Shown here one piece after another: positions 36,761-38,635 of a DNA stretch of 64,000 nt (position 1 is the first letter of the stretch; each line of letters starts with the position of its first letter). The DNA is from Pyrinomonadaceae bacterium (GTDB taxonomy: Bacteria; Acidobacteriota; Blastocatellia; Pyrinomonadales; Pyrinomonadaceae), in NCBI GenBank assembly GCA_035249365.1, contig DATFGP010000022.1, forward strand, positions 192,013 to 256,012, read 5' to 3'. The position numbers and the translations under genes are program-made. Below the pieces are notes generated by a model. That model was not told where the DNA came from and made no database searches. It worked only from the letters and a program-made list of their open reading frames with translations.

Positions 36761-37306
36761 ATGAGCAAAGATATTGAGCGCGAACAGGCGATAGCCGAGC
36801 AAGCGGCGGGTGAGCCGTTGAAGGATCAGGCGGGCGCGGGGTTGATCGCCGCGCTGCAAGGGTCGCACGCAGACGCTGTTGTTGAGGTGATTCAGGCGTT
36901 CGGCGAGATCACGATTGTTGTGCCGCGCGAGCGCATCGTCGAGTTGTGCGAGTATTTGAAGACGACGCCGGAGTTCGAGTTCAACATGCTGGCAGACATC
37001 TGCGGCGTGGATCGTGGGCCGGAGGAAGACCCGCGATTTGAAGTCAACTATCATCTTTTTTCTACGACCAAATTCCATCGCTTACGACTCAAAGTTGTCG
37101 TCAGCGAAGAAGACGCGCGCGTGCCGACCGTGACGGGCGTGTGGCGCACGGCCAACTGGCACGAGCGCGAAACTTTCGATCTATTCGGCGTGCGTTTCGA
37201 CGGCCATCCCGATTTGCGTCGCATACTCCTGCCCGACGATTGGCAGGGGCACGCGCTCCGCAAAGACTTCCCGCTGCGCGGCTACGAGCCGTACAGCCTT
37301 AGCTAA
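36761..37306 (+). CDS. nuoC: NADH-quinone oxidoreductase subunit C
   Basis: 30-kDa subunit signature 'ANWHERETFDLFGVRFDGHPDLRRIL'. Confidence 0.94.
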   Translation: MSKDIEREQAIAEQAAGEPLKDQAGAGLIAALQGSHADAVVEVIQAFGEITIVVPRERIVELCEYLKTTPEFEFNMLADICGVDRGPEEDPRFEVNYHLFSTTKFHRLRLKVVVSEEDARVPTVTGVWRTANWHERETFDLFGVRFDGHPDLRRILLPDDWQGHALRKDFPLRGYEPYSLS

Positions 37307-37416
37307 GTGACAAGTGACAAGTGACGAGTGACAAGTTAAAGACAAAAACAGTCTTCGCTCGCCACATGTCTTTATCTTATCTTGTCTCGTCACTTGTCAC
37401 CTATCACTCGTCACTG
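37305..37416. repeat. A-family heptamer-arm palindrome
   Basis: aagtgacaagtgacaagtgacgagtgacaag-(45-nt loop)-cttgtctcgtcacttgtcacctatcactcgtcactg. It starts on the nuoC TAA and is followed by 'attacttATGg', which contains the nuoD start. Confidence 0.92.
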
Positions 37417-37423
37417 ATTACTT

Positions 37424-38635
37424 ATGGTCGCAAATCTTCCGCCGCAGTTCGAGGTTGTTGACCAACCGCTCGACACGCAGATGACGATCTCGATGGGGCC
37501 GCAGCACCCTTCGACGCACGGCGTCCTGCGTCTCGAACTCGTCCTCGACGGCGAGATGGTCATCAAATGCACGCCCGACATCGGCTATCTCCACACGGGG
37601 ATGGAGAAGCTGTTCGAGTACAAGAAATACCAGCAAGGCATCGTCATCACAGACCGTATGGATTACCTGAATCCGCTCGGCAACAATCTTTGTTATGTGA
37701 TGGCGGTGGAGAAATTGCTCGGCCTCGAAATACCGGAACGCGCGCAGGTGATTCGCGTCTTGATGTGCGAGTTGCAGCGCATCGCCTCGCACATGGTCTG
37801 GTTGGGGACGCACGCGCTCGACATCGGCGCAATGAGCGTTTTCTTCTACGCCTTCCGCGAGCGCGAGAAGATTTTGAACTTGATCGAAGCCGCGTCGGGC
37901 GGTCGCCTGACGCCGTCCTACTTCCGCATCGGCGGTTTGATGATGGACTTGCCTGCGGGTTTCGAGAGTCGCGTCAAGCAGTTCATAGACAAGTTTCCGA
38001 AGGCGGTTGACGAGTTCGAGACGCTGCTTTCGGGCAACCGGATTTTCCAGTCGCGCACGAAGGGCATCGGCATCATCACTGCCGAAGACGCGATTGACAT
38101 GGGCGTCACGGGGCCGTGCCTGCGCGGGAGCGGCGTCGCCGTTGACGTGCGGCGTACGAATCCTTACACGGGCTACGAGACTTACGATTTCGACGTTCCG
38201 GTCGAACAGAGTTGCGATGTGTGGGGGCGCTACCTTGTACGTATGCGCGAACTGCGCGAGTCTCTGAAGATCGCGCGGCAGGCTCTCGGTCGTTTGAAGC
38301 CGGGGCCGGTCAAGGCCGACGCGCCGAAAGTTGTCTTGCCGGATCGCGAGGCGATGAAGACGCACATGGATGCGCTCATACACCACTTTTTGATCGTGGC
38401 CGAAGGCTTCAACGTTCCGGCGGGCGAAATTTATCACCCGATTGAAGGCTCGAAGGGCGAACTCGGCTGCTACGTGAAATCGGACGGCGGCCCGAAGCCC
38501 GCGCGCGTACACTTTCGCGGCCCCTCGTTCGTCAACCTCTCCGCCCTGCCGCACATGTCGGAAGGCGAGATGGTCGCAGACGTGGTCGCCATCATCGGCT
38601 CACTCGACATCGTGCTCGGCGAAATAGACAGGTAA
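37424..38635 (+). CDS. nuoD: NADH-quinone oxidoreductase subunit D
   Basis: 403 aa with 'GPQHPSTHGVLRL' and 'IGYLHTGMEK'. Confidence 0.96.
   Translation: MVANLPPQFEVVDQPLDTQMTISMGPQHPSTHGVLRLELVLDGEMVIKCTPDIGYLHTGMEKLFEYKKYQQGIVITDRMDYLNPLGNNLCYVMAVEKLLGLEIPERAQVIRVLMCELQRIASHMVWLGTHALDIGAMSVFFYAFREREKILNLIEAASGGRLTPSYFRIGGLMMDLPAGFESRVKQFIDKFPKAVDEFETLLSGNRIFQSRTKGIGIITAEDAIDMGVTGPCLRGSGVAVDVRRTNPYTGYETYDFDVPVEQSCDVWGRYLVRMRELRESLKIARQALGRLKPGPVKADAPKVVLPDREAMKTHMDALIHHFLIVAEGFNVPAGEIYHPIEGSKGELGCYVKSDGGPKPARVHFRGPSFVNLSALPHMSEGEMVADVVAIIGSLDIVLGEIDR

Follow-up and report, generated by a model that had tools for sequence, protein, structure and literature searches.

Introduction

A 64,000-nt stretch of a metagenome-assembled genome (MAG) from a member of the Pyrinomonadaceae (Acidobacteriota), referred to here as the window and supplying all coordinates given below, contains palindromes whose arms are inverted arrays of 7-nt units. 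One of them, the element A6 between nuoC and nuoD, belongs to a family of seven (the A family). We consider it rather likely that this family is a palindromic selfish element of the intervening-sequence (IVS) type, with one full form (A5) that bears an open reading frame (ORF) and six ORF-less copies, lodged in short operon gaps. The closest described systems are the IVSs of 23S rRNA. The Coxiella IVS is described as a selfish element of 428-444 nt that has a terminal stem of 28 bp and carries an S23p ORF, and RNase III cleaves it halfway along the stem; its origin as a mobile element is hypothesised only (PMC4990558). A5 resembles the 23S rRNA IVSs of Coxiella burnetii and Leptospira in its length of 436 nt, its terminal inverted repeats of ∼28-33 bp and its internal PF05635 ORF. 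Unlike them, the elements described here lie in mRNA spacers, namely operon junctions and 5′ leaders, and the window contains no rRNA gene; moreover, their arms are explicit heptamer arrays, with many copies and several families per genome. Whereas the rRNA IVSs are cut by RNase III, the helices of 28-35 bp are in our case only predicted. ORF-less IVSs of ∼100 nt exist in Salmonella, and these would parallel the ORF-less copies of the window.

The GGGAATC and GGGGA(T/C)T repeats of Xanthomonas and Nostoc likewise consist of 7-nt units, mostly four, and form convergent pairs at 70 of 186 sites; they are found preferentially between aligned ORFs and no more than 50 bp from a stop or start codon, in some cases overlapping the stop, most are transcribed, and they were read as G-quadruplex motifs tied to no gene (Rehm et al. 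2015, PMC4692102). The elements of the window share with these arrays the tandem 7-nt units in about four copies, the intergenic position between aligned ORFs near stops and starts, and the inverted pairing. They differ in that family A has no G-runs and the phylum is a different one, and no link to PF05635 or IVSs has been drawn for the Xanthomonas and Nostoc arrays. The direct TAACTGA repeats of marine Beggiatoaceae, Cyanobacteria and Bacteroidetes end a few nucleotides before start codons, where Shine-Dalgarno (SD) sequences are rare; a repeat of this kind stops all frames and can thus overlap a gene end only slightly (MacGregor 2015, PMC4679880). Unlike our palindromes, these are nearly all direct arrays with no predicted structure, for which neither an inverted partner nor an associated gene has been described.

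Repeats of the repetitive extragenic palindromic (REP) type can affect mRNA stability. Like the elements of the window, the REP, BIME (bacterial interspersed mosaic element) and REPIN (REP doublet) sequences of proteobacteria are extragenic, transcribed, hairpin-forming, high-copy and species-specific, and may lie between cistrons. REPs are short imperfect palindromes headed by GTAG or CGTC (PMC3733652); they measure 20-40 bp and have a transposase of the RAYT type as partner. The A-family elements instead end in CAGTGAC...GTCACTG, their arms are tandem heptamers without a GTAG or CGTC head, and a scan of 33 window proteins, from 64 kb of the genome, revealed neither a RAYT nor a Y1 transposase. 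MITEs (miniature inverted-repeat transposable elements), such as the Correia elements, are similar in being short, non-coding, multi-copy, co-transcribed and bounded by terminal inverted repeats, and in being presumed deletion derivatives of an ORF-bearing parent; unlike in MITEs, no target-site duplication was seen on inspection of the seven A copies, and the ORF-bearing form encodes only PF05635 and no recognisable transposase. Intrinsic terminators, with their short G+C-rich stem, small loop and U-tract, differ from the present elements, which have long A/T-rich stems, loops of 15-60 nt and mostly two to four T after the stem. Our literature search, which was incomplete, returned no study linking heptamer arrays to PF05635 or to IVSs, and nothing specific on heptamer palindromes of Blastocatellia or Acidobacteria. 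The comparison joins three unlinked literatures, on rRNA IVSs, on bacterial heptamer repeats (G-quadruplex motifs, TAACTGA repeats, STRR sequences) and on Avd-like proteins.

The A family of heptamer-array palindromes

At the nuoC-nuoD junction, the TAA stop codon of nuoC (37304-37306) is fused to unit 1 of A6, as a reading of the window from sequence alone (the sequence-only reading) had stated and as we read directly. Following ...AGC TAA, the left arm runs GTGAC AAGTGAC AAGTGAC GAGTGAC AAGT; a loop of 49 nt separates it from the inverted arm, which ends in GTCACTG. The spacer to nuoD, GATTACTT, occupies 37416-37423, with ATTACTT directly before the ATG at 37424. In Tandem Repeats Finder the arms of A6 have a period of 7 and comprise 4.6 and 4.3 copies; for the element arrays the period is 7 and the copy number 3.9-4.6. 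The predicted RNA fold of region 37295-37445 has a free energy of −44 kcal/mol (z = −4.33), and none of 200 dinucleotide shuffles was equally stable. The predicted folds of all elements range from −38 to −92 kcal/mol on either strand. At the Rfam gathering score only SAM_alpha was matched in the window; the elements gave only sub-threshold matches to miRNA hairpin models.

All seven members of the family (Table 1) consist of AGTGAC(A/G) repeated about four times, a loop and the inverted copy. The ends, CAGTGAC...GTCACTG, are common to copies at unrelated loci, as is related subterminal and loop sequence; a common loop sequence is found in A2, A4, A6 and A7, and likewise in the four copies of a second family, B1-B4. 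The number of units varies between three and seven, unit variants are common to both arms, and the arms of the ORF-less copies measure 23-43 nt. In an exact-pattern scan with one genome per species, three consecutive A units occurred mostly in MAGs of Pyrinomonadaceae, Blastocatellia and other Acidobacteriota, with unrelated occurrences elsewhere. Pfam confirmed the identities of the genes named in the sequence-only reading. An Hbd protein 100% identical to that of the window is on record from a Pyrinomonadaceae MAG, on a contig of 330 kb.

The sites listed in the sequence-only reading were correct; as a correction, the arrays at 28990-29016 and 29395-29425 are the two arms of a single gene-bearing element of 436 nt, A5. 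These arms of 26-33 nt are 88-92% complementary and lie 368-379 nt apart. A5 begins 4 nt past the TAA of gene 24039-28985, and its right arm contains the stop codon of the minus-strand gene zapA (29416-29418), whose end reads GAT GAC GAG TGA.

A PF05635 gene inside A5

The 125-residue protein encoded within A5 matches PF05635 with E = 1.9e-39 over model positions 1-106 of 106 and TIGR02436 with E = 3.8e-37; it also matches PDB entry 2GSC (E = 5e-27) and, more weakly, bAvd/Avd. Its first five codons, GTG ACA AGT GAC GAG (VTSDE), are encoded by the arm, and no start other than the GTG of an arm unit would preserve the conserved N-terminal helix. The same is seen in its relatives: among the 120 best homologues (70-94% identity), 87 start with (M/V)-T-S-(D/E) or MSDE, the peptide encoded by the A unit. 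The protein is under purifying selection, with dN of 0.15-0.29, saturated dS and a ratio of ≤0.08 where computable, and across these comparisons the non-coding arms stay of the AGTGAC type. A conserved protein whose arms keep their sequence type despite saturated dS points to a functional tie between protein and array. No other gene was found inside any element. Close PF05635 homologues lie mostly on contigs of 0.5-2 kb, as expected if repeat flanks break assemblies.

We fetched genomic contexts of PF05635 genes by protein identity alone, blind to the flanks, which yielded nine loci (seven of the Pyrinomonadaceae type and two distant ones). In all nine, which represent three phyla, the gene is bracketed by inverted arrays with a period of 7 or 14 nt. 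Each of the seven independent Pyrinomonadaceae-type loci shows the order left AGTGACR array, gene and right inverted array between co-directional host genes; the junctions include ECF sigma factor and kinase, binding protein and permease, MFP and ABC ATPase, PglZ and BrxL, and OmpA and histidine kinase. The upstream stop codon in these seven loci is fused to the left arm or lies inside it, as TAG|TGACGAG or a GTGA overlap. In the isolate Melioribacter roseus (L212, CP003557.1, 3113520-3115452) the PF05635 gene lies between hisH and hisA and is flanked by GTGACTT/GTAATTG... units and their inverse, with the hisH stop inside the array and the hisA ATG 3 nt past it. In the isolate Flavobacterium sp. 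HSC-61S13 (L213) it is flanked by seven TCGTAATTTGAGAG units and their inverted copy. Two loci selected by their arrays, L093 and L005, likewise have a PF05635 gene between the arrays, and no PF05635 gene without arrays occurred in the 1.2 Mb of sequence examined. The Ignavibacteriaceae gene in L005 (5150-5200) seems to need a frameshift in a 5′ A-run, which may reflect a pseudogene, a sequencing error or slippage.

In at least three phyla, members of the PF05635 family appear to reside within heptamer-array palindromes. On our reading, the A-family elements represent an intergenic equivalent of the S23p-type rRNA IVS that occurs in multiple copies. We know of no function assigned to this large family outside diversity-generating retroelements; it now gains a genomic context, inside a heptamer-array palindrome and with the host operon providing the transcript. 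An earlier study described PF05635 genes within cas operons, where they were interpreted as functional partners (PMC3936711). The contexts described above suggest that these genes are junction insertions instead.

Position of the elements relative to stop and start codons

All three frames meet a stop within 19 nt of entering any of the seven A elements, from either side, in line with the earlier proposal that a 7-nt unit containing TGA closes every frame from both directions. The arms of families B, C and E contain no three-frame stops; the property is peculiar to family A and does not belong to the element class. The stops and terminal codons that had been placed inside the arms, for yceD (9174-9176), hbd (11100), zapA (29416) and nuoN (54462-54464), are all present; in hbd the last three codons (SDK) and the TGA at 11100-11102 lie within the A2 arm, which reads AGT GAC AAG TGA. 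Five of the six A copies have the stop within the arm, as against one of eight copies of the families without stops, and the four B copies, whose arms are free of stops, all lie 3-5 nt past the native stop codon. Of the 13 elements with an upstream stop, 12 have it at −20 to +12 nt relative to the arm, the exception being E1 (+50).

On the downstream side, the start codon lies 1-9 nt past the arm in nine of the ten co-directional contexts for which offsets were tabulated; the exception is the thiolase gene, at 20 nt. For rpmF, which is outside that table, the distance to A1 computed from the start at 9065 is 30 nt. Both of these more widely spaced genes keep an SD sequence. The elements had been described as occupying the entire gap between stop and start. 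The abutment is real; it follows from insertion into gaps of 0-40 nt.

The arms are open on the far strand, so that mechanical ORF calls extend into elements or invent ORFs. In the window such false calls comprise TTG 54504, TTG 11041 and the plus-strand ORF 8349-9086, which hides the true rpmF (ATG 9065, minus strand). This last ORF was rejected as spurious: synteny with three relatives places yceD and rpmF co-directionally on the minus strand, with A1 between them. In soil Acidobacteriota, operon junctions are riddled with long hairpins, gene callers place false starts and ORFs in the arms, and some proteins carry short repeat-encoded tails.

Gene ends and initiation context in relatives with and without elements

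Among 80 metagenomic loci encoding close NuoC relatives, 63 nuoC-nuoD and 56 nuoB-nuoC junctions could be read. The nuoC-nuoD junctions comprised 17 gaps of <50 nt (several with ATGA overlaps), at least 29 heptamer palindromes, seven other hairpins and six gaps of >250 nt. The heptamers differ by locus and include GTCCAAA, GTTCAAA, GTTTCAA, GTAAATC, GATTTTT, GATTGCC, GAGTGCT, GTGAAAG and others. The large gaps (554-992 nt in six relatives) were considered as further elements; the one examined, L131, holds an inserted gene of 287 codons, and this candidate was dropped. With or without an element, NuoC ends in ...LRGYEPYSL-x-stop at the same codon and the first residue of NuoD is unchanged (63 junctions), and NuoB always ends in ...HERRRS-x-stop (56 junctions). 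In the nuoB-nuoC gap of L162, L150 and L153 we noted one to four tandem units of ∼60 nt with a hairpin, CCACCGAC...GTCGGTGG.

The ends of Hbd and YceD behave differently from those of NuoB and NuoC. Hbd ends in YEY in the element-free relative L200, and in Y-SDK, Y-GDR or Y-EKP where an element is present. At the syntenic loci, the gene ends in TAC TGA in L200, in TAC AGT GAC AAG TGA in the window and in TAC GGT GAC AGG TGA in L198; in L199, which carries an element of a CGTAAAT family, it ends in ...CCG TAA ATC. After the motif GRGFYxY, about half of 120 Hbd homologues have a tail of the type (S/G/V)-D-x, which is a translation of the A unit (SDK in 23, GDR in 18, GDK in nine, with GDG and similar tails besides); the remaining tails are EKP, EKT and QKT, and seven of the 120 have none. 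In YceD, the residues that follow ALKK are EQD where no element is present, and Q, SDG or NGE where there is one. A-type arms thus supply the last one to three codons and the stop in Hbd and YceD, and the tails they replace are short and unconserved. The proposal that the elements define gene termini therefore holds for the arm-encoded residues of these two proteins and fails for NuoC and NuoB, whose C termini keep exactly their length in relatives lacking the element, so that neither truncation nor extension took place; for these two genes this is the outcome that the sequence-only reading had named as its refutation.

The start codons downstream of the elements are native, as judged from N termini conserved in element-free relatives. 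The three spacers that had been quoted before the starts at 21757, 37424 and 54552 read as given and are indeed free of an SD sequence; the same is true of many genes without an element. By inspection, ∼40% of the genes in the window have an SD-like sequence, and the leaders of the others are rich in T and A and end in TT ATG, AT ATG or similar. The element-free genes with T-rich leaders and no SD sequence include nuoM, nuoF, nuoB and the genes at 15227, 18088, 42410 and 43478, and element-free nuoC-nuoD junctions of relatives also read ...TTATGAG. Conversely, the thiolase gene (AAGGAG) and rpmF (AAGGAA) have their SD sequences intact in the window and in relatives, with the element ending 20 and 30 nt upstream. 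The absence of an SD sequence is accordingly a property of the genes and not of the element, and the elements do not create a translation-initiation context. CTTATG was also considered as a fixed feature of the element and rejected, because it follows only four of nine co-directional copies and occurs at the element-free nuoM start; TTATG is also common where relatives have a nuoC-nuoD junction without an element. The spacers of A4 and A6 are identical at 17 of 18 positions, and CACTGAATCTTATG recurs in other genomes. Taken together, of the sequence-only reading it stands that arms close frames and sometimes encode the last residues of a protein; NuoB and NuoC are unaltered, and no initiation context arises from the elements.

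Turnover, nesting and orientation

Three syntenic sites, the thiolase leader, the hbd-TPR junction and the yceD-rpmF junction, could be compared in four genomes. The window and L198 carry GTGAC/GTGAT-type units at these sites, L200 carries no element, and L199 carries CGTAAAT/GGTGAAT-type units at all three. The position of A3 in the thiolase leader is kept in L044 and L198, is taken by a GTAAATC-family element in L199 and is empty in L200. Upstream of A3 lies a sigma70-like promoter on the minus strand (−35 at 13835-13840, −10 at 13813-13818), the near-consensus form of which, TTGACT-16-TATAAT (13813-13840), is kept in five genomes (the window, L044, L198, L199 and L200). The heptamer element, where present, begins ∼10 nt past the −10 box and would thus form the 5′ end of the mRNA. 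A half-deleted copy was seen in L119, which has only one arm of the element present in its relative L118. Nested elements, in which the palindrome of one family lies within the loop of another, occur in L180 (the nuoC-nuoD gap), L024 (4715-4852) and L097 (167-307).

All eight window copies that can be oriented (A2, A4, A6, A7 and B1-B4) point in the direction of transcription, for which the chance probability is ∼1/64. The A-type elements of 117 pattern-matched loci could not be oriented, their loops being too diverse and partly palindromic. For 54 junction hairpins we compared the stability of the sense and antisense RNA: the sense strand was more stable in 23 and the antisense strand in 31 (Wilcoxon p = 0.2), with 115 versus 144 G:U pairs. 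This lack of strand asymmetry gives no sign of selection specific to the sense RNA.

Proposed origin of the elements and rival explanations

We propose the following account of the A family. The full form consists of inverted heptamer arrays of ∼28 bp enclosing a PF05635 gene that is read from the host operon transcript via the GTG of the arm. The ORF-less copies, by virtue of their shared termini and a weak similarity of their loops, would be MITE-like deletion derivatives of this form, and copies would survive only in transcribed spacers. Since the spacers of compact operons measure 0-40 nt, an element takes up all the space from stop to start. The A unit contains TGA, and its period of 7 shares no factor with 3; a copy may therefore intrude on the terminal codons of a gene, the frame closing within 0-5 codons, and its insertion would replace a short, unconserved tail. 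Families whose arms lack stops must sit just past the native stop codon, which they do. In the mRNA, the arms would pair into a helix of 28-35 bp, at whose base the stop and the start would become neighbours, and coupling of the ATGA type would thereby be roughly preserved: a terminating ribosome, having opened the stem base, could hand over to the adjacent start without an SD sequence. Such fold-back adjacency would explain how an essential operon can tolerate elements in its ATGA-type junctions. RNase III probably cleaves the helix, by analogy with the rRNA IVSs. We infer that the PF05635 protein acts on its own arrays.

Several observations weigh against this account. The sample of PF05635 contexts is small, with nine unbiased loci. 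The loops of the ORF-less copies match the ends of the PF05635 ORF over 10-12 nt (E ∼0.1), which is a weak hint. Neither a mobility enzyme nor a target-site duplication nor a recent insertion polymorphism was found, and inspection of the seven A copies revealed no flanking direct repeats. Finally, the occupation of the nuoC-nuoD junction in at least 29 of 63 relatives, together with the uniform orientation of the eight copies, could mean that the hairpin is selected by the host.

This last possibility corresponds to the sequence-only reading, in which the elements are host-selected, cis-acting RNA hairpins that couple a stop to an SD-less start, mimic an SD helix or 30S standby site, or stabilise the mRNA. 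Besides the occupation of nuoC-nuoD despite family turnover and the common orientation, it is favoured by the tight placement of the arms, which in nine co-directional cases begin −12 to +5 nt from the upstream stop and end 1-9 nt before SD-less starts, and by the retention of A3 just downstream of a promoter in three genomes. However, the 54 hairpins show no sense-strand asymmetry, close relatives manage with an ATGA overlap or a short gap and no element, and SD-less T-rich leaders are the norm without elements. Elements also occur between convergent genes, and one of them carries a gene of its own. The ORF-bearing form, which has to be transcribed with the operon, accounts for the orientation bias: as descendants of a form with this requirement, the ORF-less copies would be co-oriented. 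We regard host selection as unlikely. Local simple-sequence repeats, in which slippage creates the arrays in situ and template switching the inverted copy, with neither transposition nor a link to a gene, would fit the variation in unit number (3-7), the unit variants common to both arms and the related heptamers GTTTCAA, GTTCAAA and GTCCAAA at one junction across relatives. Heptamers are, moreover, the commonest long simple-sequence repeats in many bacteria, for which a slippage origin has been proposed (Mrazek 2007, as quoted in PMC4679880). Against such an origin stand the presence of one family with the same termini and related loops at unrelated loci of one genome, the nested copies, the genome-wide switching of families in parallel across sites, and the constant association with a conserved ORF that starts within the arm; we consider it very unlikely.

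The elements could also be intrinsic terminators or attenuators that set operon polarity. A3 is indeed a hairpin followed by a T-run (T8), the spacers of A2, B4 and A4 are partly T-rich, and a genuine terminator-like hairpin with T8 adjoins A4. Yet most spacers have only two to four T, the A/T-rich stems measure 28-35 bp and enclose loops of 15-60 nt, and six elements lie in the nuo cluster, whose products are expected to be needed in roughly equal amounts. A terminator and promoter scan of the nuo region flagged no element and gave no excess of terminator-like sites (25 versus 24.6 expected); this is a weak test, as it permits only loops of 3-8 nt. Termination appears to us highly improbable, and we judge the same of REP/REPIN-type repeats mobilised by a RAYT, an IS200/IS605-like tyrosine transposase. 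Like REPINs, the elements are hairpin doublets that are extragenic, present in high copy and variable at a given site from one related genome to another, but their arms are tandem heptamers and not short imperfect palindromes headed by GTAG or CGTC (PMC3733652), the scanned window proteins include no Y1 transposase, and PF05635 is the sole gene seen within an element.

Extending the IVS-type account of the A family to other organisms, we tentatively raise the possibility, which we hold with less than even confidence, that PF05635 proteins and their cognate inverted 7-nt arrays form a widespread, unrecognised class of selfish elements. If so, the 23S rRNA IVSs would be a special case that landed in rRNA, and the PF05635 protein would recognise its own heptamer array as a transposase does its ends. 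The ORF-less heptamer palindromes and arrays of Acidobacteriota, Xanthomonas, Nostoc, Beggiatoaceae and Bacteroidota would be derivatives of this class, and would colonise operon junctions since the hairpin keeps stop and start together, possibly also since RNase III removes it. If the stems are RNase III sites, operon mRNAs would be segmented at most junctions of the complex I cluster.

Other palindromes and neighbouring features

In total, the window contains at least 16 heptamer-array palindromes of at least six sequence families (Table 1). Besides A, these are B (GTCAGTT/GTCCGTT, four copies), C (GGGAAAG, two), D (GAGGGAT, one), E (a 9-mer, one) and F (CCATCAG, one). Only families C and D have G-rich units; the A unit AGTGACA has no G-run. 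Six elements lie within or at the end of the nuo cluster.

Table 1. Heptamer-array elements of the window and the gene enclosed by A5. Coordinates are window positions.
Feature	Position	Strand	Unit or product	Context
A1	9096..9178	-		between yceD (stop 9174-9176, within arm) and rpmF (ATG 9065, 30 nt past arm, AAGGAA SD sequence kept)
A2	11027..11111	-		between hbd and TPR/zinc-ribbon gene (ATG 11017, 9 nt past arm)
A3	13721..13803	-		5′ leader of thiolase gene; followed by T8, AAGGAG and ATG 13700
A4	21663..21748	+		between SAM-II riboswitch plus terminator (21525-21662) and homocysteine methyltransferase/MTHFR gene (ATG 21757); spacer GATTTCTT
A5	28990..29425	+		ORF-bearing, 436 nt; arms 28990-29018 and 29395-29425
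PF05635/TIGR02436 gene	29005..29382	+	four-helix-bundle protein, 125 aa; 23S rRNA intervening-sequence, Avd-like protein	inside A5
A6	37305..37415	+	AAGTGAC x4.6 (left arm)	left arm 37305-37336, loop 37337-37385, right arm 37386-37415
A7	54459..54547	+		between nuoN (TGA 54462-54464, in unit 1) and 190-aa ORF (ATG 54552, 4 nt past arm)
B1	3804..3922	-		between fabF-like gene (stop 3928-3930) and etfB (ATG 3802)
B2	36661..36759	+	GTCCGTT/GTCAGTT	between nuoB (stop 36654-36656) and nuoC (ATG 36761); arm without stops
B3	48058..48178	+		between nuoK (stop 48052-48054) and nuoL (ATG 48185)
B4	38640..38731	+		between nuoD (stop 38633-38635) and nuoE (ATG 38739)
C, copy 1	6665-6741		GGGAAAG	
C, copy 2	18934-19038		GGGAAAG	
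D1	45790..45885	+	GAGGGAT	between gene 43478-45787 (TAG 45785-45787) and nuoH (ATG 45893)
E copy	23703-23793		9-mer CGCAGAGGA	−90 kcal/mol
F copy	2958-3028		CCATCAG	
Solo direct array	21301-21331		GCTAACA	

The gene upstream of D1 (43478-45787) was called nuoG from its place in the nuo cluster only. The cluster also includes genes that do not encode complex I subunits (40723-43465 and 52223-52825), namely a NUDIX hydrolase, an ORF of 338 codons, an AIR-synthase-related gene and a thioredoxin/AhpC-like gene, the last of which lies between nuoM and nuoN. The SAM-II riboswitch unit near A4 precedes a gene for a homocysteine S-methyltransferase/MTHFR fusion, with A4 between the terminator and the ATG. 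Its aptamer (21525-21600) matches RF00521 with 41.2 bits against a gathering score of 36; a promoter-like site, TTGACA-17-TATAAG, lies upstream of the aptamer and a CCCGCG...CGCGGG hairpin with T8 downstream of it (region 21488-21662).

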